Under the pieces are notes generated by a model. The model saw only the letters and a list, made by a program, of their open reading frames with translations. It was not told the DNA's origin and did no database searches. A DNA stretch of 64,000 nucleotides from Bacillota bacterium. Lineage in GTDB: Bacteria > Bacillota > SHA-98 > UBA4971. Positions 1-49,364 of this stretch are shown one piece after another; positions within the stretch are counted from its first letter, which is position 1, and each line of letters begins with the position of its first letter. Where the stretch lies: assembly GCA_050261335.1 (NCBI GenBank), contig JBLNDE010000009.1, positions 30,010 through 94,009 on the forward strand, written 5' to 3'. The translations under genes and the position numbers were made by a program.

Positions 1-27
1 GCATAGCCCGGAACCCCGGCGCGGGCC

Positions 28-588
28 GTGGTGGTTAGTGGTTCCAGTGGCCGGGAAGGCTATACTTGCGCATATTCATCCAGTTTCAGGGAAGGCAGGC
101 TGCAAGAGTTGGGACTCAAAGAACTCAGGCGCGAGATCGCCGGCCTCGCGAAGATAATGAATGCGCACGACATCGCCGAGATGGAGGTCTCCGTTGACGG
201 CGTTTCTGTCAGGCTGAGACGGGCGGGCGGCCCGGGCAGGTCTCAGGACGTCGCTGAGCCCGCGAGGCCCGGGAATTCGCTCCAGGCCGAGGTTGCGCCC
301 ATCGAGGCGGCGCCGCAGGCGAGGCCCGAGGTGACAGCCCGGGACAACCATATCACGATTCCCGCCCCAATGGTGGGCACATTCTACAGGGCGCCCGCGC
401 CCGACGCCGATCCCTATGTCGAGATCGGGGACGTGGTCTCCCCCGGGCAGGTGGTGTGTATCATCGAGGCCATGAAGATCATGAACGAGATACAGGCCGA
501 GGTGAGGGGCAAGGTCGTTGAGATCTTGGTAGACAACGCCGAGCCCGTGGAGTACGGCCAGCCCCTGTTCGTGCTCGAGGCGCTATAG
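28..588 (+). CDS. accB: Biotin carboxyl carrier protein of acetyl-CoA carboxylase. The start may be the in-frame TTG near 109.
   Basis: C-terminal biotinyl domain with EAMKIMNEI motif; immediately upstream of accC. Confidence 0.9.
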
Positions 589-643
589 GTTTTGGGCCCA
601 GGGTCGTCCCACTTCACGCTGGCTGCATCGCAGGAGGTACGGT

Positions 644-2011
644 GTGCAAGAACTCTCCATCAGGAAGGTCCTCGTGGCGAACAGGGGCGAGATCGCGGTC
701 CGCATCATAAGGGCGGCGAGGGAACTCGGGATCGAGACGGTCGCAGTGTATTCCGAAGCTGATCGGGATTCCCTTGCGGTCAGGATGGCCGACGAGGCTT
801 ATTGCATCGGCCCGGGGCCCAGCACCCAGAGCTATCTGAACGTGCCCAACATCATCAGCGCTGCTATGCTCTCAGGGGCGGATGCGATCCATCCGGGTTA
901 CGGGTTTCTGGCGGAGAACCCCTATTTCGCCGAGATATGTGAGTCTCACGACATCAAGTTCATAGGCCCGAGCGCGCGGGTCATGGGGGTCATGGGGGAC
1001 AAGGCCGAGGCCAAGCGGGCGATGGCGGCGGCCGGGCTTCCTGTCATACCCGGCACCCCCGGCGTGATACAGCACGAGAAAGAGGCGCTGGCGTTCGCCG
1101 AGGCGCACGGGTTTCCGGTGATGGTGAAGGCGGCCGCGGGCGGCGGCGGCAAAGGGATGCGCGCTGCGTCGAGCAGGCAGGAACTGGTGACCGCCATCAG
1201 GTTCGCGCAGGCCGAGGCGGAGGCCGCGTTCGGAGTGGCGGGAGTGTACCTCGAGAAGATCCTCGACCGCCCCAGGCACGTCGAGGTGCAGGTGCTCGCA
1301 GACGAGGACGGGCACGCGATTCATCTCGGCGAGCGCGACTGCTCGGTGCAGCGCAAGCACCAGAAGCTCGTCGAGGAGTCGCCTTCGCCCGCCGTGAACG
1401 AGCGTCTGCGACGATCCATCGGTGAGGCGGCGGTGCGGGGCGCCCTTGCCGTGGGTTACACCAACGCCGGCACGATGGAGTTCCTCGTCGATGCGTCCGG
1501 GGCGTTCTACTTCATGGAGATGAACACCAGGGTGCAGGTGGAACACCCGGTGACCGAGCTCGTCACGGGCATCGACATCGTGAAGGCGCAGTTCATGGTA
1601 GCGGCCGGCGAATCCATCGCCGTCACGCAACGCGACGTGGCGATCTCGGGCCATGCCATAGAGTGCAGGATCAACGCGGAGGATCCGTCCAGGAACTTCA
1701 TGCCTTCACCAGGTCGAGTCTCGTCGCTGGTGCTTCCGGGCGGCCCCGGGGTACGCGTTGATACCGCGCTTTTCCCGGGATGTGACGTGCCGCCGCACTA
1801 TGACTCGCTCATCGCGAAGGTCGTTGTGTGGGGCCGTGATCGCACCGAGGCCATCCGAAGGATGGCAAGGGCGCTTCAGGAGATCGAGATCGAGGGCGTT
1901 TGCAGCAACGTCGATTTCCAGCGTAAGCTCATAGGCAGTTCCCGGTTTCGCGACACGACGATCTATTGCAACGATGACGTTCTGGCTCTTGTCGCCGGGA
2001 GCGAGCCTTGA
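644..2011 (+). CDS. accC: Biotin carboxylase
   Basis: ATP-grasp biotin carboxylase sequence ([20 protein letters not shown]...); GTG start with AGGAGG RBS. Confidence 0.95.
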
Positions 2012-2012
2012 T

Positions 2013-2041
2013 TTGCCAAGGGTTACGCGGACTGGTATAAT
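2013..2041 (+). promoter_or_regulatory. sigma-A-type promoter, TTGCCA-17-TATAAT with TGn extended -10
   Basis: Exact hexamer spacing read directly; lies between accC stop and the asp23 gene. Confidence 0.5.
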
Positions 2042-2067
2042 ACAGCCGGAAGGAGGGCCAGGACGCC

Positions 2068-2484
2068 ATGCAGCCAGGAGATTTGGGCTATGATGACGCT
2101 CCTTCTCACGGGAACCACGAGAACATGGGCAACATCAAGATCGCCAGCGAGGTCGTGGGAGTGATCGCGGGCCTTGCTGCGACTGAAGTAGAGGGGATAG
2201 CCGGCATGAGCGGCGGCATCACCGGGGGCATCGCCGAGCTGCTCGGGCGCCGGAACCTGTCCAAGGGTGTCAAGGTCGAGGTCGGCGAGAAGGAGGCTGC
2301 CGTCGATCTGTTCGTGGTCGTGAACTACGGGGTGCGGATCCCTGACGTTGCCTGGAAGGTGCAGCAGAACGTGAAGAGGGCCATCGAGAGCATGACCGGG
2401 CGCGAGGTTGTGGAGGTCAACGTCCACGTACAGGGTGTGAGCTTCCCACACGAGGAGAAGCAGGAGGCCCCAAGGGTGCGTTGA
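2068..2484 (+). CDS. Asp23/Gls24 family alkaline-shock protein
   Basis: IASEVVGVIAGLAATEVEGIAGM... typical Asp23 fold; conserved position after accC. Confidence 0.85.
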   Translation: MQPGDLGYDDAPSHGNHENMGNIKIASEVVGVIAGLAATEVEGIAGMSGGITGGIAELLGRRNLSKGVKVEVGEKEAAVDLFVVVNYGVRIPDVAWKVQQNVKRAIESMTGREVVEVNVHVQGVSFPHEEKQEAPRVR

Positions 2485-2537
2485 CCGGCGACGTATTCCA
2501 GCCAGGAAGGTGGAAGGTGAAAGGAGCAACCTTCACG

Positions 2538-3083
2538 ATGAGAGTCTACGATCGGGTCGTCACGTTCATTTCCTCCCTTGCTCTGCTCGGGGCGGGCATG
2601 CTGTTCCTCGTGATGGCATTCGGCCCCAACCCCACCAGGCTCTTCACCGATGTCTTCCTGACCGGGCCTTTCGGGAGCCTGCGCCCGGCTACCATCGGCG
2701 GCGCCGCCGCGGCGGTGGCGATGGGGCTCTATCTCATGTGGCTCGCCACCCGCGGGCGCGGGCGGCGAAGGCCGATCGTCCGGGGGACAAGCCTCGGCGA
2801 GGTGAGGATCGCGCAGGCTGCGGTTGAGTCGCTGGTGCGCCGGGCGGCAAGGGAAGTCCCGGGCATCCAGGACGTTGACACAGTGGTGGATACCTCCGGC
2901 GAAGAGCTGGAGATATACGTGTCGGTGACGGTCAGCCCGGACATGTCCATTCCGTCGGTCGCCGAGCAGATCCAGACGAAACTTGCCCGTTATATCGGCG
3001 ACACCGTCGGGGTGGACGTGTCCAGAGTGTCCGTGAACGTCAGGAACATCGGCCACGAGCAGAAAACCCCCAGAGTGGTGTAG
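2538..3083 (+). CDS. Membrane-anchored Asp23-domain protein (AmaP-like). The ORF extends to 2481; the ATG at 2538 has a strong RBS.
   Basis: N-terminal TM helix then Asp23-like domain; AAAGGAG RBS. Confidence 0.6.
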   Translation: MRVYDRVVTFISSLALLGAGMLFLVMAFGPNPTRLFTDVFLTGPFGSLRPATIGGAAAAVAMGLYLMWLATRGRGRRRPIVRGTSLGEVRIAQAAVESLVRRAAREVPGIQDVDTVVDTSGEELEIYVSVTVSPDMSIPSVAEQIQTKLARYIGDTVGVDVSRVSVNVRNIGHEQKTPRVV

Positions 3084-3103
3084 CCGGAAAAGGGGGCAGG
3101 TCC

Positions 3104-3334
3104 ATGAGGCCCGAGGTGCGGGAGATACTTCGCATAGCCCTCGAACACCCGGGGAAGGTGTTCGGGTCGATATTCGGGTTCATCGTCGGATGGGTGATGA
3201 TCCTCTTCAGCCCGATTGCCGGGCTCTACCTTGCTGGTTGCGTTGCCGTGGGCTACCTCATCGGCCGCCACGTCGACAGCCACAGGAGCATCAGGGAGGT
3301 CCTGGAAGACTTCCTTCCTCCTCAAGAACGCTAA
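3104..3334 (+). CDS. Small integral membrane protein (DUF2273-like)
   Basis: 76 aa, two TM helices; usual partner of Asp23/AmaP genes. Confidence 0.5.
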   Translation: MRPEVREILRIALEHPGKVFGSIFGFIVGWVMILFSPIAGLYLAGCVAVGYLIGRHVDSHRSIREVLEDFLPPQER

Positions 3335-3861: not shown

Positions 3862-5100
3862 ATGCTTACCATCTACTCGGTCTCCGACGTCGCAAGGCGC
3901 ATAAAGCAGGTCATCGAGGGCGATGAGTCCCTCTCCGGGCTCTGGGTGCGCGGGGAGATCTCGAACTTCACTCTCCATACTTCAGGACACATGTACTTCA
4001 GTCTCAAGGATGCCTCCGCCAGGCTGAAATGCGTGATGTTTCGCGGGAATAACATGTATCTCAAGTTCAAGCCGGCGGACGGGATGCTCGTGTTCGCGTA
4101 CGGCGCGGTGGGTGTATACGAAAAGGGCGGGGACGTGCAGTTGTACGTGGAGGACTTGATGCCTGCCGGCACCGGATCGCTGTACCTCGCGTTTCTGCAA
4201 CTCCGCGACAGGCTGGCGACGGAGGGCCTGCTCGACGCTGCGAGGAAGAGATCCCTGCCGAGGTTCCCGTCGGTGGTGGGCGTTGTGACCTCGCCCACCG
4301 GGGCCGCAGTGCGCGACATCATCACGGTGATAAGCCGCAGGGCCCCCGGCACGACGATCCTTCTCATACCCGCGCAGGTCCAGGGGGACGATGCGCCCGA
4401 AAGCATCGTGAAGGCGCTTGACCTCGTGAACCGCGCCTCGGCCTTCATCGACGTGGTCATCGTCGGCAGGGGCGGCGGGTCAATAGAGGACCTCTGGGCG
4501 TTCAACGATGAGAGGGTCGCGCGGGCCATCGCCGGGTGCAAGGTCCCGGTGATATCCGCTGTGGGACACGAGACGGACTTCACCATCGCCGACTTCGTTG
4601 CCGACCGCAGGGCTCCGACCCCGTCAGCCGGTGCGGAGATGGCCGTGCCTGACATGGCGGAGACGAGGCGGGCCGTTCTTCAGCTTTCGCTCCGGCTCGA
4701 GGCGGCGGCGAGGACGGAGGTCCGCAGGCACAGGGAGCGCCTGGAGCGCGTCGCCCGGTCCCACGTGTTCAGGTTTCCCCAGGAGATAACGAGGGAGCAC
4801 CGTCAGAGGCTCGCCGACGCGCAGCAGAGGATGTCGGCGGCCATGACGCATAAGCTATCCGGGGAGCGCGGGGCGTTCGGGGCGCTCGCTGCCCGACTCG
4901 ATGTCTTGAGTCCGCTGGGGACCCTCGCGCGCGGCTATGGGATGGTCCGAGGGCTTCCCGGCAGGCGCGTGGTGCGCACCGTGCGGGCTGTTGCGCCTGG
5001 GGATGACATAGAGGTGGTCCTCGTTGACGGGAGGATCGAGTGCGCCGTGACGGCGGTCGAGGAGGGAGGCCCCGATGCAGGGAGAGGACGCGAAGATTGA
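3862..5100 (+). CDS. xseA: Exodeoxyribonuclease VII large subunit
   Basis: [10 protein letters not shown]...GEISNF OB-fold N-terminus; ATG at 3862 with GAAGGTG RBS (ORF extends to 3829). Confidence 0.9.
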
Positions 5101-5323
5101 CTTCGAGAAGGCCATGGAGGAGCTGGAGGAGACGGTCTCGCGGCTCGAGGCCGGCGAGCTTGGACTCGAGGAGTCGCTGGAGGCGTTTGAGAGGGGCATG
5201 GCGCTCGTAAGAGTGTGCCGCAACAAGCTGGACGAGGCGGAAACGAAAATCGCGAAGCTGGTGGAGACGAAAGGCGGAGATCTCGTCACCGAGCCGTTTC
5301 ACCTCGAGGAAGACGCCGGATGA
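5075..5323 (+). CDS. xseB: Exodeoxyribonuclease VII small subunit
   Basis: 82 aa coiled-coil protein overlapping xseA end. Confidence 0.85.
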   Translation: MQGEDAKIDFEKAMEELEETVSRLEAGELGLEESLEAFERGMALVRVCRNKLDEAETKIAKLVETKGGDLVTEPFHLEEDAG

Positions 5324-6339
5324 ACGATGACTGGGCGGGCAGGCTGAGAATCCTCGTGGATGGTGCCCTCGATGCTGCGCTTCCACCGGAGACCGCCACG
5401 CCCGAGGCGCTCCACAGGGCGATGAGGTACGCCGTCTTCCCTGGCGGGAAGCGCGTGCGACCGCTTCTCGCGCTGGCCGGTGCCCTCGCGACCGGGCGCA
5501 GGCGCCGCCGTGTGACCGGGGCCACGGGATGCGATAGCGACGACGAGACGCTCGTGCGGCGCGCGATGCCGTGTGCGGTCGCGGTGGAGCTTGTGCACTC
5601 GTACTCGCTCATCCACGACGACCTTCCCGCCATGGACGACGACGATTTCAGACGGGGCCGGCCCACCGTGCACAGGGCTTTCGGTGAGGCGCTCGCGATC
5701 CTTGCGGGCGACGCGTTGTTGCCGCTTGCCTTCGAGGTGCTTTCCGGCGAAGGAGCGTGCCGCCTCATGGGGTCCGAGGCGGCCTCGGCCGCCATGCGCG
5801 AGCTTGCACACGCTGCCGGAAGCCTCGGGATGGCGGGTGGGCAGGCCATGGACGTGGTAGGCGCTCAAGGCGTGGAAACGACTCATCCCGGGACCGCCGA
5901 TGGCGGCCGTCGTCGCGGCAGCCACCGCCGGGGCGAGGGCAACGGCGAGCGCAGCGGCAGGGCCGGCACCAGTGATGGCGGCGGGGGCGGCGGCGGGTGT
6001 CCTGGCGGGGTTGAACTCCTCGCCGACCTCAAGACCGGAGCGCTCATCCGGGCGTCAGCAAGGTGCGGCGCCATTGCGGCGGGGGCCGGGCCGCAGGAGA
6101 TCGGCGCCCTCACGCGCTACGCGGAACTCTTCGGCCGCGCCTTCCAGGTGTTCGACGATCTCAAGGACATGGCGGATGACGGGTCCCGGACGTTTCCACG
6201 AGCCATGGGAGCCACCGGCGCGCGGCGCTACGGCGAACGCCTCGTGGCCGAGGCTCTGGAGGCACTCTCTGCGTTTGCTCCGGACGAGGCCGCGGAGCTA
6301 TCGGATCTCGCCAGAGCGCTCGGCGCGCCCGTTGCTTGA
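5320..6339 (+). CDS. ispA: Polyprenyl (farnesyl/geranyl) diphosphate synthase carrying an unusual Gly/Arg-rich internal insertion
   Basis: Two DDxxD motifs (LIHDDLPAMDDDD; FQVFDDLKD); ATG overlaps xseB stop (ATGA); the upstream part of the ORF, 5215-5319, is discounted. Confidence 0.85.
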   Translation: MNDDWAGRLRILVDGALDAALPPETATPEALHRAMRYAVFPGGKRVRPLLALAGALATGRRRRRVTGATGCDSDDETLVRRAMPCAVAVELVHSYSLIHDDLPAMDDDDFRRGRPTVHRAFGEALAILAGDALLPLAFEVLSGEGACRLMGSEAASAAMRELAHAAGSLGMAGGQAMDVVGAQGVETTHPGTADGGRRRGSHRRGEGNGERSGRAGTSDGGGGGGGCPGGVELLADLKTGALIRASARCGAIAAGAGPQEIGALTRYAELFGRAFQVFDDLKDMADDGSRTFPRAMGATGARRYGERLVAEALEALSAFAPDEAAELSDLARALGAPVA

Positions 6340-6364
6340 TGGCAAGGGGTGCCTGTGTTATAAT
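6336..6364 (+). promoter_or_regulatory. Promoter TTGATG-17-TGTTATAAT (extended -10) driving the non-coding gene
   Basis: Read directly downstream of the ispA stop. Confidence 0.45.
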
Positions 6365-6370
6365 CATGTG

Positions 6371-6985
6371 TGCCAGGGCAGGTGGTGCAGTATTCTAGTC
6401 AGCACCACCATCTTTGAAGGCGGGCCTAAAAATCCGTCAAGGGCACATCGATGAAGTCCCTGGTGCTGGCCGCCGACGCCCAGTCGGGGGCTGGTGCTGG
6501 GGGTTAAGAGGCGAGGGCGATCTGCAATGGCATGCGGGCGTGGACCCTCTCCTCGCGGAGACCCGACCCCGTGGTGAGACGACACCGATCGGCTGCCACG
6601 GCCGGGGGGTAAACCTGCACCTAGGTGCGGGCAGGTGCGAGACACACCGCGCTTGGTGCAGTGTAGCCTGCCTTGAGTGGCGGGAGCGGGATTGCGGGTA
6701 CCAGGGCGCTCGTCTCCTGGCCGGGAGATGCGCTCGTTGCCGCATGAAACTCCAACTGCAAAAGAGGCTAGAAGATGGTGGGTGCTGCCGAGGAAAACTC
6801 CTAGACTGTCCGAATATGTGGGGCACTCCGGGGATTGCAGTGTGCGCTAAGTGGTAATCCGGCCGTCCGAAGGGGCAACCCCGGGAGGCGGTCGTAAACG
6901 GGAAACCGCCCGAGCGGCAACGCGAGGGAGCACCGCAGGGAAAACCAGCCGGACCTCAAGCCACAATATTTACCCGGGATGCCAC
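6371..6985 (+). ncRNA. ole: Candidate OLE (ornate, large, extremophilic) RNA
   Basis: ~600 nt GC-rich stretch with no coding potential. It has its own promoter and many local hairpins. It lies between ispA and a ~22 kDa membrane protein followed by dxs, which is the canonical ole-oapA locus. Confidence 0.5.
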
Positions 6986-7011
6986 CACCTGCCTGGGACG
7001 TTCTTGAGGTG

Positions 7012-7671
7012 ATGCCTTTCTTGGACCAACGTCTCGCAAGAGCTGTGTCCGTTGGTTTCACAACGTTCTTACTTGCAATACTGGTGAACTTCGTGTCCAA
7101 GATACTCCTGGGTCGCGTCGGGCTGGTTCTTGGACTTTTTGTTCTGTTGGGTATAGTCTTCATCGGGGTTGCGTTCGACGTCATCGGGACCGCTTCGACC
7201 GCCGCGAAAAGACAGCCGTTCCATGCGATGGCCGCGAAGAGGGTTTACGGCGCCCGGCAGGCCCTCCGGATCGTGCGATCCGCCGACCGCGTGGCGAACT
7301 TCTGCAACGACGTGGTGGGCGACATGGCGGGCACCGTGAGTGGAGCGATCGGAGCCAGCATAGTCATACGATTGATGATGGTCATGCCTCCTCGCGTCAG
7401 CGAGACTGTGGTGAGCACCATCGTCGTAGGGATCATCGCGGGCCTCACCGTCGGGGGCAAGGCCTGGAGCAAGAACATGGCCGTGAACGACGCCGAGCGG
7501 ATCGTGCTCGCTGCCGGCAAGATCATAGCCGGGATCGAGTCGGTCACAGGGGTGACGTTCCTTCGTCACAAGAGGTCGAACCACCGCAAGCGTGGCCGAC
7601 CGAGGGAGAGCCCGTGTAGACAAGACCGGAACCGGAAACGGAGCGATAACGAGAGTGGTACGACTCCTTGA
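7012..7671 (+). CDS. oapA: OLE-associated membrane protein OapA-like (ORF extends to 6979)
   Basis: 4-5 TM helices, ~219 aa, GAGGTG RBS; position between the non-coding gene and dxs. Confidence 0.5.
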   Translation: MPFLDQRLARAVSVGFTTFLLAILVNFVSKILLGRVGLVLGLFVLLGIVFIGVAFDVIGTASTAAKRQPFHAMAAKRVYGARQALRIVRSADRVANFCNDVVGDMAGTVSGAIGASIVIRLMMVMPPRVSETVVSTIVVGIIAGLTVGGKAWSKNMAVNDAERIVLAAGKIIAGIESVTGVTFLRHKRSNHRKRGRPRESPCRQDRNRKRSDNESGTTP

Positions 7672-9643
7672 CTCGCTGAACCTTCCCCAGGATTTGAAAC
7701 GGCTCTCGCTGAACGATCTGGCCCAGCTTGCGTCGGAGATTCGTGGTGAGATCATACAGACGGTGTCCAGGACCGGCGGCCACCTCGCACCGAGCCTCGG
7801 GGCGGTGGACCTCGCCATCGCCCTGCATACGGTGCTGGACAGCCCAAGGGACAAGATCATCTGGGATGTCGGGCACCAGGCTTACGCCCACAAGCTCCTT
7901 ACCGGGCGCAGGTCCGCCTTTAACACCCTCAGGCAGTTCGGAGGCATCAGCGGGTTTCCCCGGCGTGACGAAAGCCCCCATGATGCGTTCAACACGGGGC
8001 ACTCGAGCACGTCCATCTCGGCGGCGCTCGGCATGGCCAGGGCCAGGGACCTCAAGGCGGAGGACTTTGCAGTCGTCGCGGTCATCGGCGACGGCTCGCT
8101 CACCGGGGGCATGGCCTTCGAGGCCCTGAACCATGCAGGACACCTGAAGACGGACCTCATCGTGGTGCTCAACGACAATGAGATGTCCATATCCCCGAAC
8201 GTGGGTGCGCTCGCGTCGTACCTTGCCAGGTTACGGACGGAACCACGCCTCCTGAAACTGCGCCAGGACATAGAACGCGTCCTCGAGGGCATTCCGCGCA
8301 TCGGCAAGGACCTCGCGGAGAGTGTGAGGAGGCTCAAGGGAAGCCTCAAGTACCTGGTCGTGCCGGGGATGCTGTTCGAGAGCCTCGGATTCACGTACCT
8401 CGGGCCGCTCGACGGGCACGACATCCCTTCCATCATGCGGACGGTCGAGGACGCGCGGGCCAAGGGCGGGCCCGTGCTCATCCATGTCATCACGAAGAAA
8501 GGCCGCGGCTACGCTCCCGCGGAAGCCGACCCGCGCAAGTTCCATGGAGTGGGCAGGTTCGACGTGGCTTCGGGGGAGCTATCCAGGTCGCAGGGGCCTC
8601 CCACCTGCACGCAGGTGTTCGGGGAGACCATCGCCAGGCTAGCTGCGAGCGATCCGAGGATCGTCGCAATAACCGCGGCGATGCCCGACGGCACCGGCCT
8701 GGATCTCTTCGGACGGCTCTACCCTGAGCGATTCTTCGACGTTGGCATAGCCGAGCAGCATGCGGTGACCCTCGCGGCCGGGCTCGCAAGCCAGGGCCTT
8801 GTGCCGGTCGCGGCGATCTACTCCACTTTTCTCCAGAGAGCGTACGACCAGATCATCCATGACGTGGCCCTGCAGGGGCTTCACGTGGTATTCGCAGTGG
8901 ACAGGGCAGGGCTCGTGGGAGAGGACGGCCCCACCCACCATGGAGCGTTCGACCTCGCCTACCTGCGCAGCGTGCCTGGCATGACCGTGATGGCGCCGGC
9001 CGACGAGGAGGAACTCGTGGCGATGCTCTCTTCTGCCATTGCCATGGACGGGCCTGTCGCGGTGCGATACCCGAGGTCACAGGGATGGGGCCAGGCCGCC
9101 CTGCGACCGTGCAGTCCGATCGAGCGCGGCAGAGGGGTTCTTGTCCGCGACGGAGGCGACGTGGCCATCGTCGCCATCGGAAGCATGGTCCACCCATCCA
9201 TCGAGGCTGCGGGGCATCTCGAGCGGGAGGGGATACACGCCGCCGTGGTCAATGCGAGGTTCGCAAAACCCCTCGATGATGGCCTCATTTCACAGGTGGC
9301 GGAGGAATGCGGCCGGTTGGTGGTGGTGGAGGAGGGGACCTGCGTCGGCGGTCTCGGGAGCGCGGTGACCGAGGTGCTCGCCCGCCGGGGCGGTGCGTCC
9401 ATTCCGATTCGTCACCTTGCGCTGCAGGACAGGTTTGTGGAACACGGGTCCCGCGAGGTGCTTCTGGCCATGTGCGGGCTCACTGCGCACGACATCGCGA
9501 GGGCCGCGACAGATCTCTGCAGAGGCTCCGGGCGCGCGGCGCGGCGGCGCAGGGATTCCTCTCGAACGGGCCAGGATGACATGGCGGCGGCGGGCGCGGA
9601 GGCAACCAAGTATGGCGCCATGAGTCTTCGCCACTTTTCTTGA
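7655..9643 (+). CDS. dxs: 1-deoxy-D-xylulose-5-phosphate synthase. The C-terminal ~15 aa and the stop codon are encoded by a repeat element.
   Basis: Transketolase-like TPP enzyme (GDGSLTGGMAFEALNHAG...); GTG at 7655 in frame; ORF extends to 7592. Confidence 0.9.
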   Translation: MVRLLDSLNLPQDLKRLSLNDLAQLASEIRGEIIQTVSRTGGHLAPSLGAVDLAIALHTVLDSPRDKIIWDVGHQAYAHKLLTGRRSAFNTLRQFGGISGFPRRDESPHDAFNTGHSSTSISAALGMARARDLKAEDFAVVAVIGDGSLTGGMAFEALNHAGHLKTDLIVVLNDNEMSISPNVGALASYLARLRTEPRLLKLRQDIERVLEGIPRIGKDLAESVRRLKGSLKYLVVPGMLFESLGFTYLGPLDGHDIPSIMRTVEDARAKGGPVLIHVITKKGRGYAPAEADPRKFHGVGRFDVASGELSRSQGPPTCTQVFGETIARLAASDPRIVAITAAMPDGTGLDLFGRLYPERFFDVGIAEQHAVTLAAGLASQGLVPVAAIYSTFLQRAYDQIIHDVALQGLHVVFAVDRAGLVGEDGPTHHGAFDLAYLRSVPGMTVMAPADEEELVAMLSSAIAMDGPVAVRYPRSQGWGQAALRPCSPIERGRGVLVRDGGDVAIVAIGSMVHPSIEAAGHLEREGIHAAVVNARFAKPLDDGLISQVAEECGRLVVVEEGTCVGGLGSAVTEVLARRGGASIPIRHLALQDRFVEHGSREVLLAMCGLTAHDIARAATDLCRGSGRAARRRRDSSRTGQDDMAAAGAEATKYGAMSLRHFS

Positions 9644-9816
9644 GGGTGCTGGGGTCGCCGGTGCTTGCCAGGGCGGGGCGCCTGGGATTTGGCTGGCCCG
9701 TGCGCCGAATTCGAACGAGGCGCGCCGCGAGCGCGCCGTCCCCGGAGTGCAACACCGCCAACACTGGACAAGACCCGCCCGCTGAAAAGAGCGCGAACTT
9801 GTGGCGATCTACTTAG
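9606..9816 (+). repeat. MITE-like dispersed repeat, copy A (full length)
   Basis: CCAAGTATGGCGCCA...GTGGCGATCTACTTAG termini and GTTGCCGGTG...GCAACACCGGCAAC internal inverted repeat; >85% identical to the copies at 40954 and 52638. Confidence 0.8.
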
Positions 9817-10746
9817 GTGGCAGGGGTAGACGATGCTGTTGAGAAAGTAGGCGTCCCCGGGGGGTATGAAGCCCTGGACCGCGAGGAAACGGGCAAGGCC
9901 GCGGGGGCCCGTCCGGAGCGGCGCGCCGAGACGCGCGCTCGCCTGGACGTGCTGCTCGTGGAACGCGGCCTCTTCGAGACCAGAGAAAAGGCGCGCCGCG
10001 CCGTCATGGCCGGAGAGGTCCTGGTGGACGGAGTTCGGGAGGACAAGCCCGGCACCAGGGTCTCCCGTTCAGCCGCCATCGAGCTCAGACCGTCGCGGGA
10101 GCCATACGTCAGCAGAGGCGGCGAGAAGCTGGAGAAGGCCCTCGACGAATTCGGCGTGGACGTGTCAGGCAAGGCCGCCATCGACGTGGGTGCGTCAACA
10201 GGCGGGTTCACCGATTGCCTGCTCCGTCACGGGGCGAGGCGGGTCTACGCGGTGGATGTCGGCTACGGGCAGCTTGCGTGGGAACTGCGCAGCAACCCCA
10301 GGGTCGTGGTGCTCGAGCGCACGAACGTAAGGTACCTCGAGCCGGGGGCCGTGCCCGAACAGGCTGACATCTGCACCATAGACGTCTCGTTCATATCCAT
10401 AATGAAGTTTCTCGAGCACCTCCTGACGTTCCTCTCCCCCGGCGCCGCCGTCGTGGCGCTCGTCAAGCCCCAGTTCGAGGCGGGAAGGGAGAAGGTGGGG
10501 AAGGGCGGGGTCGTGCGGGATCCGGAGGTGCATGCTGAGACGCTCCTGCGGGTGATAGAGTTCATGCAAACGTGCGGCCTGGAGATCCGCGGCCTCACTT
10601 ACTCCCCGATAAAGGGCCCGGCAGGAAACATCGAGTTTCTGGTGTATGCAGTAAAGGGACAGCAGGGCGGGGCGGCAGCTGCTATCGAGGCCGTCGAGCG
10701 AAGGGTATGCGAGGTGGTGGGCGCGGCCCACCGCGCCCTCGACTGA
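9817..10746 (+). CDS. tlyA: TlyA family 16S/23S rRNA (cytidine-2'-O)-methyltransferase
   Basis: S4 domain + FtsJ-like MTase (RLDVLLVERGL...DVGASTGGFTD); N-terminal ~45 aa extension uncertain. Confidence 0.85.
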   Translation: MAGVDDAVEKVGVPGGYEALDREETGKAAGARPERRAETRARLDVLLVERGLFETREKARRAVMAGEVLVDGVREDKPGTRVSRSAAIELRPSREPYVSRGGEKLEKALDEFGVDVSGKAAIDVGASTGGFTDCLLRHGARRVYAVDVGYGQLAWELRSNPRVVVLERTNVRYLEPGAVPEQADICTIDVSFISIMKFLEHLLTFLSPGAAVVALVKPQFEAGREKVGKGGVVRDPEVHAETLLRVIEFMQTCGLEIRGLTYSPIKGPAGNIEFLVYAVKGQQGGAAAAIEAVERRVCEVVGAAHRALD

Positions 10747-10843: not shown

Positions 10844-11701
10844 ATGAGGATTGGCCTGATAACACATCTCGGGAAACACGCGGCGGTGGACGCGGCGAAG
10901 GAGCTCTTGAGATTCCTCCAGACGCGCGGTGTGGAGGTGCTGCTCGATCCCGAATCGGCCCGTGAGTTCGACCGTCCCGGCATGTCCTTCGGCGAGATCG
11001 CTATCGGGGAGAAGATCGACCTCGCTGTGGTCCTCGGCGGTGACGGCGCCCTTCTCAACGCAGCCCGCCGCCTTGCCGGCAGCGAAGTCCCCATCCTTGG
11101 CGTAAACGTCGGCCACCTCGGCTTTCTCACCGAGGTTGAGCTGCCCGACATCTACGAGGCGATCGACCGGGTTCTCGCGGGCCGATACGCCGTAGAGGGA
11201 AGGATGATGCTCCGCGCACAGGTGACGCGAGCGGCCAGAGGGATCGTGGGAGAGTTCGTCGGTCTCAACGATGTGGTCGTCACGAAGGGCGCATTCGCCA
11301 GGATGATAAGGCTCAAGACGTACATCGGACCGAACTTCATTGGAACGTATCCTGCTGACGGCGCGATAGTGGCGAGTCCCACGGGCTCCACAGGGTACTC
11401 GCTGTCTGCAGGGGGTCCCATCGTGGACCCGGTGATCGATACGCTGATAGTGACGTTCATCTGTCCTCACACCCTGGCGGCGAGATCCTTCGTGGCTTCC
11501 AAGAGTGACACGGTGAGAATAGTCGTATCCGCTCCGAGCGAGGAGGTCATGCTGACAGTCGACGGCCAGGTGGGCTTCCGGCTGGAAAACCGTGACGAAG
11601 TGCTGGTGGAGGCGGCCACGACCAGGACGCGCCTTGTGAAGCTCGGGCGTCGCAGCTTCTACGAGGTCCTCAGGACCCGCCTTGCGGAGGGGAACGTGTA
11701 G
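10844..11701 (+). CDS. nadK: NAD kinase
   Basis: GGDGALLNAARR motif; ORF extends to 10811. Confidence 0.85.
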   Translation: MRIGLITHLGKHAAVDAAKELLRFLQTRGVEVLLDPESAREFDRPGMSFGEIAIGEKIDLAVVLGGDGALLNAARRLAGSEVPILGVNVGHLGFLTEVELPDIYEAIDRVLAGRYAVEGRMMLRAQVTRAARGIVGEFVGLNDVVVTKGAFARMIRLKTYIGPNFIGTYPADGAIVASPTGSTGYSLSAGGPIVDPVIDTLIVTFICPHTLAARSFVASKSDTVRIVVSAPSEEVMLTVDGQVGFRLENRDEVLVEAATTRTRLVKLGRRSFYEVLRTRLAEGNV

Positions 11702-12191
11702 GAAGGTGAAAGCCTTGAAGGCAAAGCGCCATGCCAGGGTGCTCAAGATCATCAGGGACAGGGTGGTCGAGACCCAGGAGGATCTCGCCCGCGAACTTCG
11801 TAAGGAAGGCTTCAAAGTCACTCAGGCGACCGTATCTCGCGATATAAAGGAGCTTCGAATAACGAAGCTGCCGATGAGCGACGGGCGGTACCGCTACGGC
11901 CTTCCCCGCGAGCACTCGCGCGAAGAGGCCCACAGGCGGCTCGCGAGGCTCTTCGCCGATTCGGTCATCGCCGTCGACTGGAGCGAGAACCTCGTTGTCG
12001 TGAAGACCCTGACCGGCAACGCTCATGCGGTGGCCGCAGCCATCGACGAGGCGGATTTCAAGGAGGTCGTGGGCACCATCGCCGGCGACGACACGATTCT
12101 GGCGGTGGTCCGGCCGAAGTCCGCCGTGCCCGAGGTGCTCGCGAGGTTCAACAAGCTGCGAAAGCCTTCGCCGGAGGAACGGGATGTCTGA
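11682..12191 (+). CDS. argR: Arginine repressor ArgR/AhrC (true start probably GTG 11706 or TTG 11715)
   Basis: Winged-helix N-terminus + C-terminal Arg-binding domain (GDDTILAVVRP). Confidence 0.85.
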   Translation: MRRGTCRKVKALKAKRHARVLKIIRDRVVETQEDLARELRKEGFKVTQATVSRDIKELRITKLPMSDGRYRYGLPREHSREEAHRRLARLFADSVIAVDWSENLVVVKTLTGNAHAVAAAIDEADFKEVVGTIAGDDTILAVVRPKSAVPEVLARFNKLRKPSPEERDV

Positions 12192-12235
12192 GTGTGAATT
12201 CAGAAATCCATGTGGGTCTGGGACAAGCTTCCGGG

Positions 12236-12370
12236 TTGCCGGTGCTTGCTAGGGCGGGGCGCTCTCGATTCGGCAGGCCTGAATGCCTGATCTGACGAGG
12301 CGAGCCGCAAGCGCGCCGTCCCCGGAGCGCAACACCGGAAACCTATGGAAAAGTGGCGGTGATTTCTGAA
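12236..12370 (+). repeat. MITE-like repeat, copy B (5'-truncated, diverged)
   Basis: GGGTTGCCGGTGCTTGCTAGGGCGGGGCGC...GCGCCGTCCCCGGAGCGCAACACCGG shared with the other copies. Confidence 0.6.
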
Positions 12371-12398
12371 CCCGCGCTGGGCCGGGTGGTGAGCTGAC

Positions 12399-14162
12399 GT
12401 GCTTCTTGCGCTTCAAATCAGGGACTTCGCCATTGTCGACGAGGTCGAGCTGGAGTTCGAGGACGGGTTCAACGTCCTGTCAGGCGAGACCGGGGCCGGA
12501 AAGTCCATCATCATCGGCGCCGTGACGCTTCTCCTCGGCGGGCGGGCCTCGGTAGACCACATCCGCACAGGTGCGGACGAGGCGGTCATCCACGGGACGT
12601 TCGCAGTCCCGAAAGCGTCGCCAGCGCGCCGGGCCATCGAGGACCTGGGCATCGATGTCGGCGATGACGACCTCGTCGTCATATCACGCACCATCTCGAG
12701 ATCCGGGAGGAATCAGTGCAGGGTCAACGGGCGCCCTGTGACTCAGGCGATGCTTTCGGGCATCGGTGAGCGACTCGTGGACATCCACGGCCAGCACGAA
12801 CATCAATCACTGCTCCGGGTGGCCCGGCACATGGAGTTCCTGGACGAGTTCGGCGGCGCGCAGGCGCTGGGTCTGCGCGAGCAGGTACGGTTGCAGTACG
12901 AGCGCATGATCGAGCTGGAGGCGGCCCTTGCGGCCCTCCGTTCCGGCGAACGGGAGAGGGCTCAGCGAGTCGACCTTCTCGAGTTCCAGGCGCGCGAGAT
13001 CGACGCCGCGCGGCTTTCGCCCGGAGAGGACGTGCAGCTTGCGAAAGACCGGGCGGTGCTGGCGGCCGCGGACCAGCTCTACGCCCACGCCAGCGCGGCG
13101 TACGCGGCGCTGCGCGGAGACGATTCAGGCTCAAGTGGTGCCGCAGACGCTATCGCCGCGGCCGTGTCGGAGATCGAGGCAGTGCTGAAGGTGGACGATT
13201 CGGTTAAGGGCGCAAACGACCTTCTGCAGAGCGCCCTCGCGGCGTGCGAGGAGTCCGCAAGGGCGATCCGTGTGTATAGGGACGGAATCGAGGTGGACCC
13301 CGCGCGGCTCGCGCAGATCGAGGAGCGACTCGCGGCCATAGAGCGTCTGAAGAGGAAGTACGGCGACACGGTGGACGAGATCCTCGAGTATCGCCGCAGG
13401 ATCGGCGATGAGCTCGCGAGGGTCGCGTCCTCGGAGGAGGAGATCGCCGCCGCAGAGAACGAGCTTGCGAGGGTCAAGGCGTCGCTTGGCTCGCTCTCCG
13501 CATCCCTTCACGAGGTGCGCGCTCGGGCTGCCCGGGACCTCGAGGAGCGGGTGAAGGCGGAGCTTGCGGACCTCAACATGGGGTCATCCGTCTTGTGTGT
13601 GAGCTTTTCCGCGAAGGAGGACCCGCGAGGGGTGCCTGTGGGCGATAGACTGCTCGCTGTCGGCCCGGACGGCACGGACACCGTGGAGTTCCTCCTTTCG
13701 GCGAATGCCGGAGAGCCTCCAAAGCCTCTCGCCCGCATAGCGAGCGGTGGCGAGATCTCCAGGGTCATGCTGGCGCTCAAGTCGATCCTCGCTTCTGTGG
13801 ACGAGGTGGACACTCTCATCTTTGACGAGGTCGATGCCGGAATCGGCGGGCGCACCGCGACGGCGGTAGGGGAGAAGCTTGCGGCCACGAGTCGCATGCG
13901 GCAGGTGGTGTGCGTGACCCACCTTGCGCAGATTGCAAGCATGGCGTGCGTCCATTTCGCCATTAGCAAGGTCGAGAAAGAGGGACGCATCCGCACGGTT
14001 GTGGAAAGGCTCGACGGGGAGGCACGGATCGCGGAGATCGCACGGATGCTCGGCGGAGCCGACCTTACGCCTACCACCTTCAAGCACGCCAGGGAGATGC
14101 TACAGGCTGGAGCAGATGCAAGGCGGCGTGACACGCGCCGACGCCAGGCTCTCGCCACCTGA
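12399..14162 (+). CDS. recN: DNA repair protein RecN
   Basis: SMC-like N-terminal Walker A (LSGETGAGKSIIIGA) and C-terminal signature; conserved position after argR. Confidence 0.9.
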   Translation: MLLALQIRDFAIVDEVELEFEDGFNVLSGETGAGKSIIIGAVTLLLGGRASVDHIRTGADEAVIHGTFAVPKASPARRAIEDLGIDVGDDDLVVISRTISRSGRNQCRVNGRPVTQAMLSGIGERLVDIHGQHEHQSLLRVARHMEFLDEFGGAQALGLREQVRLQYERMIELEAALAALRSGERERAQRVDLLEFQAREIDAARLSPGEDVQLAKDRAVLAAADQLYAHASAAYAALRGDDSGSSGAADAIAAAVSEIEAVLKVDDSVKGANDLLQSALAACEESARAIRVYRDGIEVDPARLAQIEERLAAIERLKRKYGDTVDEILEYRRRIGDELARVASSEEEIAAAENELARVKASLGSLSASLHEVRARAARDLEERVKAELADLNMGSSVLCVSFSAKEDPRGVPVGDRLLAVGPDGTDTVEFLLSANAGEPPKPLARIASGGEISRVMLALKSILASVDEVDTLIFDEVDAGIGGRTATAVGEKLAATSRMRQVVCVTHLAQIASMACVHFAISKVEKEGRIRTVVERLDGEARIAEIARMLGGADLTPTTFKHAREMLQAGADARRRDTRRRQALAT

Positions 14163-28448: not shown

Positions 28449-30295
28449 GCGAGCGACACGATGAAAGCATCGTGGTGCTCGACGACGAGACCATCGACAA
28501 GATCGCTGCGGGCGAGGTGATCGAGCGTCCGGCGTCGGTCGTGAAGGAGCTTGTGGAGAACTCCCTCGACGCCGGGGCGTCCGGCATAACCGTGGAGCTT
28601 CACGGCGCGCCGGGCGACTTCATCAGGGTGAGCGACAACGGCTCCGGGATGAGCAGGCGCGACGCGAAGATGGCGTTCCGAAGGCACGCTACGAGCAAGA
28701 TCCGCACGGCCGCCGACCTCCACAGCGTCCTCACCATGGGGTTCAGAGGGGAAGCCCTTGCCAGCATTGCGGCGGTTGCCAAGGTTGAGCTCGTGACACG
28801 TCGCGCCGGGGACGTGGCGGGTACCCGCATCGTGCTGGAAGGGGGCGTAGCGGTGCTGGAAGAGGACGCGCCGTCACCCGTCGGCACCGCCGTGACGTGT
28901 CGAGACCTCTTCTTCAACACCCCTGCGAGGCGCAAGTTCCAGAGGCGCCCGGCAACGGAGTTCGACCACGTCCGCGACGTCGTGGCAAGGCTGGCCATGG
29001 CATGGCCGGATGTGAGGTTCCGGCTCGTCCGGGGCGGGCGGGATGTGCTCCCGGCCCAGGGAACACACGGTGGGGACAGGCGCGCGGCCATCGCCTCCAT
29101 CTACGGCGCGGACCTCGCGAAGACCCTGCTTCCCGTCGTGGCGGGCACGCCGCGAACGAGTATCGAGGGGTTCATATCGCCGCCCGACGTGACGAGGGCC
29201 AGCCGCGACACCCAGTGCGTCTTCGTGAACGGAAGGCCCGTGGCGGCACCCGCGGTCGTGCGGGTCATCGAGAACGCGTACGGCAGGAGGCTTCCGCCTG
29301 GAAGGTATCCCGCTGTGTTCCTGTGGATCTCGACTGACCCGGTGTCGATCGATGTGAACGTCCACCCGGCGAAGAGGGAGGTGAGGTTCTCAGGCGGACA
29401 CGACGTGTTCCAGCTTGCCGCTCAGGCGGCGGCCTCCGCCCTGCGCTCCGTTGGAGCGGCACCGGACCTCGCACGGAAGCTTGCTTATCCCGCGGGGGCG
29501 GGCGCCAGGCGCGCAGGGGCTGCCCGCGACGGCATGGGGGCATACGAGACCGGACCAGCCACGGGACCGCCGTTCACCGGTGCAGGCACGCCAGAGAACC
29601 TCGACAGCGTCGGTTCGCGCTCACCGCACGCGCAGGCACTCCGCCTCTCGTGCGCAGGCGGCCCGGCGCGCGAGCAGACCCGAGTTCACGACCAGGTCCA
29701 CGCTGGTTTCGCCCCTTTGGGCGTGTTCATGGGCACTTACATCCTCGCCGCCGACGGCGATGATCTCGTGATAATCGACCAGCATGCTGCGCATGAACGC
29801 ATCCTGTACGAGGCGGTGCTCGCCGGGCTCTCGACCGGCACCGCGCCCAGGGTGCAGTCACTCATTCCGACGACCATCGAGCTCGCGCCGCGGGCCGCGT
29901 CGCGCGTCCCGGCGGTCCTCGACGAGCTGGCGCGGATCGGGTTTGTGCTGGAGCCGTTCGGGCCGTCGGCGCTGCTGCTCAGAGGGGTCCCGGCCGCCCT
30001 CGGCGTCTTGCGCGGCACCGGCGACCTGGCCGGGGTCGTCCAGGGAGCGCTCGAGGCATGTTGTGATGACGCGGACGGCGGTGGACGTGATCCCGGGGAG
30101 GCGCTCGGGCGCGTCGCGGCCGAGGTCGCGTGCAGGGCGGCGGTGAAGGCCCACCGCGTTCTGGAGCCGCCGGAGATCGAGAGGCTCCTCGCGGACCTTG
30201 CGCGAGCAAGCGACCCATACTCCTGTCCGCATGGTCGGCCCACCGTGCTCAGGATCAGCCGCGCGGAACTCGAACGAGCCTTCCGAAGGACCTGA
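28445..30295 (+). CDS. mutL: DNA mismatch repair protein MutL
   Basis: GHKL ATPase N-terminus (IAAGEVIERPASVVKELVENSLDAGAS); ATG overlaps mutS stop. Confidence 0.9.
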   Translation: MSERHDESIVVLDDETIDKIAAGEVIERPASVVKELVENSLDAGASGITVELHGAPGDFIRVSDNGSGMSRRDAKMAFRRHATSKIRTAADLHSVLTMGFRGEALASIAAVAKVELVTRRAGDVAGTRIVLEGGVAVLEEDAPSPVGTAVTCRDLFFNTPARRKFQRRPATEFDHVRDVVARLAMAWPDVRFRLVRGGRDVLPAQGTHGGDRRAAIASIYGADLAKTLLPVVAGTPRTSIEGFISPPDVTRASRDTQCVFVNGRPVAAPAVVRVIENAYGRRLPPGRYPAVFLWISTDPVSIDVNVHPAKREVRFSGGHDVFQLAAQAAASALRSVGAAPDLARKLAYPAGAGARRAGAARDGMGAYETGPATGPPFTGAGTPENLDSVGSRSPHAQALRLSCAGGPAREQTRVHDQVHAGFAPLGVFMGTYILAADGDDLVIIDQHAAHERILYEAVLAGLSTGTAPRVQSLIPTTIELAPRAASRVPAVLDELARIGFVLEPFGPSALLLRGVPAALGVLRGTGDLAGVVQGALEACCDDADGGGRDPGEALGRVAAEVACRAAVKAHRVLEPPEIERLLADLARASDPYSCPHGRPTVLRISRAELERAFRRT

Positions 30296-30407
30296 CGCCA
30301 GCTCGAGGGTACGTTCGGACAGGCAGGCCCGGAACCCGGGATGCGCTGGTAGACTGGTCGAGACCTGCGGACCTGCGCCTACAGTCTCAAGCGAGAAGGA
30401 GTGGAAC

Positions 30408-31394
30408 ATGACGGGATCCTCGAGAGCACGTTCTGATAGACCTCCGATTCCGGACATCCTCGTGGCCATCGTCGGGCCCACGGCGGTCGGCAAGACCGAC
30501 GTGTCCCTCGAAGTTGCCTGCCGGCTGGGCGCCGAGATCGTCTCGTGCGACTCCATGCAGGTATACCGCTACATGGACATCGGCACGGCGAAGCCCAGTC
30601 CTTCTGAGCGCCTGCGAGTGCCCCACCATCTCATCGATGTGGTCGACCCTGACGAGACGTTCAACGTTGCCCGGTTCCAGGAACTTGCGCAGGCGGCTAT
30701 CGACGACATCAGCGCTCGCGGGCGTGTTCCCCTTCTCGTCGGAGGAACCGGCCTCTACGTGCGGGCCATCATCGACGGCTTCCTGTTCCCCTGGGAGGGC
30801 GCGTCGCCGGAGATCCGCCGGAAGCTAGAGGAGGAGGCCGACGCACATGGCGCCCCCGCGCTCCACGCGAGGCTCGAGGAGGCGGACCCGGCGGCGGCGC
30901 GGAGGATTCATCCCAACGACGCCCGTCGCATCATCCGCGCGCTCGAGGTGCATGAGACGACCGGCCGGCCAATCTCCGAGATGTGGCGCAGGGGCGGGGG
31001 CCGGAAGATGCGTGTGGACAGGCTGGTCATAATCGGGCTGGTGCGTGACAGGGCAGCCATTTATGAACGCATAGACCGGCGATGCGACGCCATGATCGAA
31101 CAGGGCCTCGTCGATGAGACGCGCGGCCTTCTCGAACGCGGATACGAGAGAGCGCTCACGGCAGGGCAGGCCCTGGGGTACAAGGAGATCGTGGAACACC
31201 TCCGGGGCAGGTGTGCGCTTGCAGACGCCGTCGAGGCCATCAAACGGAACACCAGGCGCTACGCCAAGCGGCAGCTCACCTGGTTCCGCGCCGACCCGCG
31301 TATCGAGTGGATCGACCTGGGGACGCCTTCGGCCGTGAGCGAGGCCGCTACCTGTGTGCTGGCGCTCATCAGAGGAAAACTCGCCGCGATGTAG
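30408..31394 (+). CDS. miaA: tRNA dimethylallyltransferase MiaA
   Basis: P-loop IVGPTAVGKT; GAAGGAG RBS. Confidence 0.9.
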   Translation: MTGSSRARSDRPPIPDILVAIVGPTAVGKTDVSLEVACRLGAEIVSCDSMQVYRYMDIGTAKPSPSERLRVPHHLIDVVDPDETFNVARFQELAQAAIDDISARGRVPLLVGGTGLYVRAIIDGFLFPWEGASPEIRRKLEEEADAHGAPALHARLEEADPAAARRIHPNDARRIIRALEVHETTGRPISEMWRRGGGRKMRVDRLVIIGLVRDRAAIYERIDRRCDAMIEQGLVDETRGLLERGYERALTAGQALGYKEIVEHLRGRCALADAVEAIKRNTRRYAKRQLTWFRADPRIEWIDLGTPSAVSEAATCVLALIRGKLAAM

Positions 31395-31457
31395 AACGTT
31401 ACATCGTGCGCGATCGCCGGGGGAATGCATGTCGCAATGGGGAGGACGAACGACGAG

Positions 31458-31709
31458 ATGAGCAAGCCTTCACCGAACCTTCAGGACATGTTCCTCAATG
31501 CCGTCAGGCGACAGGAGATCCCGGTCACCATATACCTCGTCAACGGCTACCAGATGAAGGGCCTCGTGAAAGGCTTCGACAGCTTCACCGTCATCCTCTC
31601 CGATGGCGCGCGGCAAGATCTCATTTACAAGCACGCCATCTCCACCATCACCCCCGCCCGCGCGATCCCACTCCTTTCCCACGCCGACCATGAAGATAGT
31701 CCCGTCTAG
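31458..31709 (+). CDS. hfq: RNA chaperone Hfq
   Basis: Sm motif ([23 protein letters not shown]). Confidence 0.9.
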
Positions 31710-40957: not shown

Positions 40958-41166
40958 GTGGATCGCCACAAGTTCGCGCTCCTTTTCGGCGGGTGAGTCC
41001 TGTTCAGGGTTGCCGGTGTTGCCCTCCGGGGACGGCGGGCTTGCGGCGCGCCTCGTTCGAATGTGGCGCGCGGGCTAGCCAAATTCCAGGCGCCCCGCCC
41101 TAGCAAGCACCGGCAACCCCAACACCGTCAGAGAAGATGGCGCAAACTCATGGCGCCATACCTGGA
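40954..41166 (-). repeat. MITE-like repeat, copy D (full length, inverted orientation)
   Basis: Reverse complement aligns end-to-end with copies A and E; overlaps the peptidase stop codon. Confidence 0.8.
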
Positions 41167-41278
41167 CGGCGGTCCGGACACCACCGCCATTCGCTTTCAC
41201 GGGGGTGACCGACGTTGCACTCAAGAGACGGCGCCCCGGACGAGGCGCCTCGACAGATCCCGGAAGGAGGGAACCGAC

Positions 41279-45027: not shown

Positions 45028-45058
45028 GTAATAATCGCTCCCTCCGCTCATATACATT
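45028..45058 (+). promoter_or_regulatory. Candidate sigma-E-type forespore-coat promoter for spoIVA
   Basis: ATAAT ... 13 nt ... CATATACA resembles the sigma-E -35 ATATT / -10 CATACA-T consensus. Confidence 0.3.
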
Positions 45059-45103
45059 ATTCTGAAAGCCGGGTGTGACCCGGTGCCGGGGGAGGGAGCC
45101 GGT

Positions 45104-47226: not shown

Positions 47227-47304
47227 CGGGGCGTGGCGCAGTTTGGCTAGCGCGCCTGAATGGGGTTCAGGAGGTCGCGAGTTCAAGTCTCGCCGCTCCG
47301 ACCA
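47227..47304 (+). tRNA. tRNA-Pro (anticodon GGG), CCA encoded
   Basis: Manual cloverleaf: acceptor CGGGGCG/CGCUCCG, anticodon stem CCUGA/UCAGG with loop AUGGGGU, T-arm GCGAG-UUCAAGU-CUCGC. Confidence 0.8.
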
Positions 47305-49279: not shown

Positions 49280-49364
49280 GCGAGAGTGGCGGAACGGCAG
49301 ACGCGCCAGACTTAGGATCTGGTGGGTAACCCCCGTGAGGGTTCAAATCCCTCCTCTCGCACCA
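49280..49364 (+). tRNA. tRNA-Leu (anticodon UAG), CCA encoded, long variable arm
   Basis: Manual fold; close match to the bacterial tRNA-Leu scaffold (UGGCGGAA..GGCAGACGCGC D-arm, GAGGGUUCAAAUCCCUC T-arm); preceded by a TTGATC-16-TGGTACAAT promoter at 49176-49203. Confidence 0.8.

Follow-up and report, generated by a model that had tools for sequence, protein, structure and literature searches.

Which element fills the 681-nucleotide (nt) gap between the stop codon of ispA and a small membrane-protein gene in an uncultured, apparently spore-forming Bacillota? We addressed this question in a 64,000-nt stretch of a Bacillota bacterium genome (contig JBLNDE010000009.1 of assembly GCA_050261335.1; hereafter the window). 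An initial annotation, made from the sequence alone, had proposed that the gap encodes an OLE RNA with an OapA-like membrane partner, in the gene order ispA, large non-coding RNA, small membrane protein, dxs. Coordinates and family matches both bear out this order. We are all but certain that positions 6336-7671 are an ole-oapA locus, comprising a full-length OLE RNA with its own promoter and the gene for its partner protein.

Identity and covariation of the RNA

The whole window was searched against Rfam 15 with cmscan (Infernal). The OLE covariance model RF01071, with which the initial annotation had proposed to check its assignment, matched positions 6366-7004 of the forward strand with 452.9 bits (E = 9.8e-130), where the gathering score is 50. 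The match ran from position 1 to position 616 of the 616-position model and was not truncated; within it, the predicted structural core closed by helix P1 extends from about 6373 to 6996. No other Rfam family matched the OLE region, and elsewhere in the window the search returned two tRNAs only. A large complement of highly conserved nucleotides, about 25% of positions, is characteristic of OLE. At the highly conserved (upper-case) consensus positions the window RNA was identical in 235 of 249 cases (94%). Canonical pairing was found for 134 of the 159 model pairs, and 33 pairs deviated from the consensus on both sides with pairing kept. The RNA lacks no large part of the model and hence belongs to the full-length type; both the P7-P9 region and the P13 site are present. 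The proportion of guanine and cytosine (GC) was 0.634 in OLE and 0.646 in the window, below the ~67% given in the initial annotation.

Comparative material consisted of 80 loci from species genomes (L001-L080), fetched via OapA alignment, and ten further loci from contigs of close relatives. OLE was full-length in all close relatives but one and scored 441-499 bits; the exception (L088), cut at its contig end, scored 358 bits. A near-identical OLE (452 bits) was also present in an older public assembly, GCA_002452295. We then measured covariation in an alignment of 13 GC-rich OLE genes onto which the Rfam structure had been mapped (alignment A2). In total, 84.1% of cells were paired, compared with 42-46% when partners were slid, and 61 pairs showed two-sided change, compared with 16-23 in the slid controls. 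None of 500 shuffles reached the observed paired fraction or two-sided count. Since pairing and two-sided changes exceed both slid and shuffled controls, the alignment indicates that the OLE RNA is under structural selection in this GC-rich lineage.

With GC of 0.63-0.64, the OLE genes of this clade had the highest values of the ~77 measured, in a sample biased to relatives of the window OapA; other GC-rich examples came from Symbiobacteriaceae (OLE GC 0.60). Across L001-L080 the GC of OLE appeared buffered relative to that of the genome, ranging from 0.43 to 0.64 where the surrounding loci ranged from 0.34 to 0.65. In AT-rich genomes OLE exceeded its flanks in GC; in the window it lay slightly below them.

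Set against full-length OLE (RF01071; Halalkalibacterium halodurans), the window RNA was alike in length, in conserved nucleotides and in all model helices as well as P1 and P3. It also shared the A-rich P4 loop, the GGCC loop of P9, the GNRA loops on P13 and P14.1, a proximal promoter of its own with its start at the foot of P1, an oapA gene directly downstream and the ispA/dxs neighbourhood. It differed in its GC (0.63, against 0.43-0.60 in OLE genes retrieved outside the clade), in an 18-nt insertion in the loop of the hairpin at 6615-6661, in a 2-nt bulge in P13 (1 nt in the consensus), in a tandem G.A in P14.1 and in a P1 extended to 10-13 base pairs (bp). The conserved core nucleotides are also shared with OLE variant 1 (TANB77) and variant 2 (RF39). 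In these variants, however, P7-P9 are shortened or missing and the OapB site is often lacking, whereas the window RNA covers all 616 model positions (PMC11332333).

Long-range helices and functional sites

In the Rfam structure line the first 53 and the last 21 model positions are unpaired, and P1 and P3 are not scored. Both helices are recognisable in the window RNA. For P1, a 5' strand at 6373-6386 (+) pairs with a 3' strand at 6984-6996 (+) that marks the 3' structural boundary of OLE. The helix consists of ten contiguous pairs (6377-6386/6984-6993) and is extendable by 6373-6375/6994-6996 across a bulged G6376; 99% of cells were paired, and five pairs showed two-sided changes. For P3 and P3.1, a 5' strand at 6402-6414 (+) pairs with 6772-6785 (+), P3 being formed by 6405-6414/6772-6781 and P3.1 by 6402-6404/6783-6785 across a bulged G6782. 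Two-sided change occurred in eight of the ten P3 pairs, and 94% of cells were paired. Taken together on A2, the 20 pairs of P1 and P3 were 96.9% paired and 13 of them had two-sided change, against 0-6 in slid controls and 0 of 500 shuffles. The family-wide test of P1 used a strict 5' anchor pattern that matched only 44 OLE sequences; in most of these 44, the best complement of the P1 5' strand lay at the homologous 3' position, in sequences that were very different.

In the published architecture P3/P3.1 is ~12 bp long, and P1, P2 and P10-P15 make up domain 2 (PMC12265935). P3/P3.1 has been proposed in the literature as a membrane-spanning helix. The P1 and P3 described here agree with that architecture, and they delimit the RNA at ~6373-6996 independently of the Rfam score.

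The same strands account for a local hairpin that the initial annotation had quoted as an example of dense local folding. Its two strands do exist (GGUGGUG at 6381-6387 and CACCACC at 6403-6409), but the spacer after GGUGGUGCAG is 12 nt rather than 10. As a native helix the hairpin did not hold up. It was formable in 93% of cells but showed no two-sided changes, 500 of 500 shuffles did equally well, and sliding the partners by +3 still gave 92%. Its strands are instead the 5' strands of P1 and P3, each pairing at long range. The cores of P1 and P3 are made of identical invariant GG/CC motifs (GGUGG/CCACC), at 6381-6387, 6403-6409, 6777-6781 and 6985-6989. A strand-swapped alternative, with the 5' hairpin and a 5-bp helix between both 3' strands, is sterically conceivable; no covariation was found for it.

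Several published functional sites could be located in the RNA. The P4 hairpin (6419-6438, +) has six of six canonical pairs, and its A-rich loop CUAAAAAU (6425-6432) is identical to the consensus; in published work this loop is an RNA-RNA dimerisation contact (PMC12265935). The region 6441-6503 (+) begins with the joining segment GGGCACAUCGAUGAAG, also identical to the consensus, and continues into a 20-bp stem with 19 canonical pairs and the loop GCCCA (6478-6482). By analogy, it would correspond to the OapC/bS21 k-turn site, which occupies nucleotides 83-147 of the Bacillus halodurans RNA (PMC9723947). The long arm at 6677-6759 (+) is the counterpart of P9 and ends in the symmetrical loop UGGCCG (6718-6723); the P9 loop forms a kissing-loop dimer contact (PMC12265935). 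At the level of sequence, all four published dimerisation loops match the consensus, namely the P4 loop, GCCCA, AAUGGC (6527-6532) and UGGCCG. The P13 hairpin, the published OapB docking site, lies at 6865-6886 (+) and carries the GNRA loop GCAA (6875-6878) and a bulge formed by A6870 and A6871. A P14.1-type hairpin follows at 6908-6929 (+), with a further GNRA loop GCAA and the tandem G.A/A.G (6912-6913 with 6924-6925), which is invariant across the ten-member clade.

Some observations weigh against the ole-oapA reading. The distal stems 6565-6568/6602-6604, 6577-6579/6591-6593 and 6704-6710/6731-6736 fit the Rfam model poorly, and the distal stem of the P9 arm keeps only 10 of 15 pairs. The P13 bulge has 2 nt in the window RNA and in the majority of its nearest relatives, and 1 nt in the consensus and in L086, L089 and L090; binding of OapB requires a GNRA loop and a single-nucleotide bulge that is reported to be critical (PMC7936274). 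Neither OapB (KOW) nor OapC (L7Ae) was found among the ~50 open reading frames scanned in the 64-kb window, against a reported presence of OapB in ~60% and of OapC in ~45% of OLE species (PMC11332333). Because of the 2-nt bulge in P13 and the tandem G.A in P14.1, recognition by OapB is possibly altered or dispensable. We consider it unlikely that the clade's OLE ribonucleoprotein (RNP) departs from that of H. halodurans in this way and through a strand-swapped alternative conformer of domain 2.

Promoter, membrane partner and proposed mechanism

A sigma-70-type promoter lies immediately upstream of the RNA at 6336-6364 (+). It consists of a -35 box TTGATG (6336-6341), a 17-nt spacer and the extended -10 element TGTTATAAT (6356-6364), in which TATAAT is preceded by an upstream TG; 10 of 12 positions matched. 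A promoter scan of positions 5000-10000 found one sigma-70-like site, this one, where shuffled sequence averages 0.4. The elements TTGA of the -35 box and TGnTATAAT were invariant in ten clade members, though the adjoining 3' coding end of ispA has diverged. Thus, the claim of an extended -10 promoter belonging to the RNA itself stands, as the only such site in 5 kb and one that is invariant in ten relatives. Transcription is predicted to start at ~6371, at the foot of P1. In B. halodurans, OLE expression increases more than 100-fold through an active proximal promoter, and 5' ends have been mapped close to where P1 begins (PMC3413148).

The terminator scan found no terminator above chance level in the interval between OLE and oapA. 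Terminator-like sites at 7050 and 7107, inside oapA, were likewise at chance level (three found, 2.9 expected). Because no terminator precedes oapA, the mature form of OLE would need to be released by 3' processing; we infer a single ole-oapA-dxs transcript in which this occurs, and dxs is probably in one transcript with oapA.

The oapA gene occupies 7021-7671 (+) and encodes 216 amino acids (aa) from a TTG start; the Shine-Dalgarno sequence GAGGTGA (7006-7012, +) lies 8 nt before this start and is kept as (G/A)AGGTG across the clade. The conserved start is TTG 7021. ATG 6979 is not the start; the in-frame ATG 7012 is missing in L002 and is probably not the start either. The protein was 100% identical to a 216-aa protein (P0001) from 'MAG: Bacillota bacterium' and had more than 1,300 homologues. 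Among these were the OLE-adjacent proteins of many Bacillaceae (Oceanobacillus, Halobacillus, Virgibacillus and others), to which identity was only ~38-46%.

Published descriptions place OapA just 3' of ole and give it four transmembrane (TM) helices, a basic cluster, a DxxxD motif and weak CNNM/DUF21 similarity, with no CBS or CorC domain and with CorB (7M1U) as the best match to its predicted fold (PMC11332333, PMC12265935). The DxxxD motif is distinctive of OapA, is absent from CNNM domains and is the site of the PM1 mutations (PMC11332333, PMC7936274). In the window protein, the hydropathy profile gave hydrophobic segments at residues ~8-30, 33-51, 100-122 and 126-146, equivalent to about four TM helices. 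The motif D97-V-V-G-D101 was invariant in 59 homologues, and the last 36 residues, a basic C-terminal tail, held 13 lysines or arginines. The only Pfam match was PF01595 (CNNM), with 17 bits (E = 0.0048), under the 28.4-bit cut-off; there was no CBS or CorC match, and no NCBIfam family matched. An AlphaFold2 model of the protein was all-helical, with a mean predicted local distance difference test (pLDDT) score of 80.6. CorB (7M1U) and CorC came at the top of its fold matches, and the top four Foldseek matches in the PDB were MtCorB structures, 7M1T and 7M1U, with probabilities of 0.97-1.0; the next match had an E-value of 2.4. A sequence search of the PDB with a 59-sequence OapA profile gave chance matches only, to herpesvirus glycoprotein L (E = 0.06-0.09), which indicates that no solved relative of OapA is detectable by sequence.

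Position gave a further test of the partnership. OLE was found by nhmmer directly upstream of oapA on the same strand in 77 of the 80 homologous loci, with one of the three exceptions cut by a contig end, and in every clade relative; in the window, oapA begins at 7021, just after the end of P1 (6996). As judged from its position, motif, predicted TM helices, CNNM similarity and modelled fold, the membrane protein is OapA, as the initial annotation had suggested. It resembles H. halodurans OapA (BH2780) in its position and strand relative to ole, its length of ~200 aa and its four predicted TM helices and, by the description of that protein, in DxxxD, basic C-terminal tail, weak CNNM-like similarity and a fold like that of CorB 7M1U. 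Unlike the CNNM (DUF21) Mg2+ transporters MpfA, CorB and CorC, it has neither the CBS pair nor the CorC/HlyC domain, its PF01595 match is sub-threshold, and it carries the DxxxD that true CNNM domains lack (PMC11332333). At two loci from metagenome-assembled genomes, L021 (Firmicutes UBA5435) and L043 (Gracilibacteraceae), an OapA homologue was present but neither nhmmer nor Rfam at its gathering threshold found OLE in the 3 kb to either side. These two proteins may be paralogues or orphans, or their genomes may carry OLE at another place.

The sequence shows the family membership of RNA and protein, a structure kept by covariation, a conserved promoter and the order of the genes. How the RNA is expressed and processed, that it binds OapA, its place at the membrane and its role under stress can be proposed for this locus from the OLE literature. 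The conserved promoter, with its extended -10 element, would start transcription at the foot of P1, and the transcript would fold into a full-length OLE RNA of ~625 nt (6373-6996), closed by P1, with P3 separating domain 1 (P4-P9) from domain 2 (P1, P2, P10-P15). Read-through would continue into oapA and dxs, and OLE would be released by 3' processing as in H. halodurans. By analogy with that species, OapA, a CNNM-like protein with four TM helices and DxxxD, would bind OLE as a dimer and keep the RNA at the membrane. The OLE RNP of H. halodurans is protective under exposure to short-chain alcohols, in the cold, at excess Mg2+ and on poor carbon sources (PMC3413148, PMC10898510, PMC12265935), and the window RNP may help its host to tolerate the same stresses.

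Could the region instead work purely in cis, as a riboswitch-like regulator or long 5' leader within the oapA-dxs mRNA, without existing as a separate non-coding RNA? One promoter appears to serve both RNA and oapA with no intrinsic terminator between them, and only 17 nt separate the oapA start from the end of the Rfam match, as such a leader would have it. Yet the fold is closed by P1 at 6996, which leaves the Shine-Dalgarno sequence outside, with no sign of a helix that would sequester it; the region has no match to any other Rfam family; and OLE as a family is a stable, abundant RNA that is seen as a single band and forms a membrane RNP (PMC3413148, PMC12265935). We therefore regard a purely cis-acting leader as very improbable.

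We give still less credence, to the point of disregarding it, to the idea of an OLE relic in decay or of a protein-coding region. The initial annotation had seen no credible open reading frame here. This is not literally so, because frames of 152 codons on the forward strand and of 160 and 172 codons on the reverse strand run across the RNA, and a relic would also suit the distal stems with a poor model fit. The frames were nevertheless not conserved in relatives: they are interrupted in L086, L089 and L090, where indels of 1-2 nt also occur, and the coding reading was rejected. Long spurious open reading frames are expected at 64% GC. Retention of 94% of the conserved nucleotides, with compensatory changes throughout, argues against decay. 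A functional ole-oapA locus is the reading that we retain.

Genomic neighbourhood and place among OLE loci

The upstream neighbour, ispA, encodes a polyprenyl/farnesyl diphosphate synthase (5320-6339, +; Pfam PF00348, NCBIfam FPPsyn). Its start, ATG 5320, was inferred by alignment with relatives, and its stop codon TGA (6337-6339) falls within the -35 box of the ole promoter. Downstream, dxs occupies 7655-9643 (+; TIGR00204, 818 bits) from a GTG start that was assigned with the gene calls of relatives, and the gene overlaps the end of oapA by 17 nt. In all close relatives xseA and xseB precede ispA, which is followed, after ~670 nt in which no gene is called, by oapA, dxs, a tlyA-like gene and nadK. 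In the window, the genes around ole comprise accBC, Asp23/yqhY-like genes, nusB, xseAB, ispA, dxs, a tlyA-like gene, nadK, argR and recN, with hfq further on. This neighbourhood matches the published OLE gene cluster (PMC12265935). The Pfam annotation gives an ispA/dxs/xseAB/nusB/recN-type cluster and the organism names ('Bacillota bacterium', 'Clostridia bacterium') a Bacillota host, as is characteristic of OLE.

OLE had been described in the initial annotation as rare, which overstates the case: the class has 2,822 known representatives and occurs in ~16% of surveyed Bacillota genomes (PMC11332333). A search of the supplement of the OLE survey for the assembly accessions of this clade found none, and a literature search for OLE RNA together with Symbiobacterium found nothing. 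The locus is thus a sound identification and an ordinary addition to a class with thousands of members. It leaves OLE biology as known unchanged, the proximal promoter, the oapA linkage and the CNNM-like partner all having been published already. What it adds is an OLE/oapA locus that is full-length, GC-rich and well delimited and that can be compared with about ten close relatives. The clade sequences show clear-cut compensatory changes in P1 and P3, helices omitted from the Rfam structure line. A GC-rich and possibly thermodynamically robust OLE might also suit structural studies of domain 2.

We also recorded several minor features of the window and its relatives. Genes linked to OLE or correlated with it in the literature lie at 1-3334, 11640-14162 and 30147-31709; they include two Asp23/yqhY-like genes (2041-3083), argR (11640-12191), recN and miaA-hfq (30147-31709). 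The presence of spoIVA at 45035-46582 points to an endospore-forming lineage. Between its conserved halves, IspA contains a low-complexity Gly/Arg-rich insertion of ~45 residues (GTADGGRRRGSHRRGEGNGERSGRAGTSDGGGGGGG; window 5860-6010). The length of this loop is hypervariable in relatives, with roughly 0-30 extra residues, and the long form is common to L001 only. In L086 (444-1202) and L087 (444-1196), xseA was called as two fragments (119 aa and 97-99 aa), elsewhere being a single gene of ~410 aa; the split points to frameshifting, a pseudogene or a misassembly. A 569-codon open frame at 40997-42706 (+) has a coding-like GC3 (GC at third codon positions) of 0.83 and no Pfam match at E <= 0.001. 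The two tRNA genes, both on the forward strand, lie at 47227-47301 and 49280-49361, and the latter is 82 nt long with a long variable arm.

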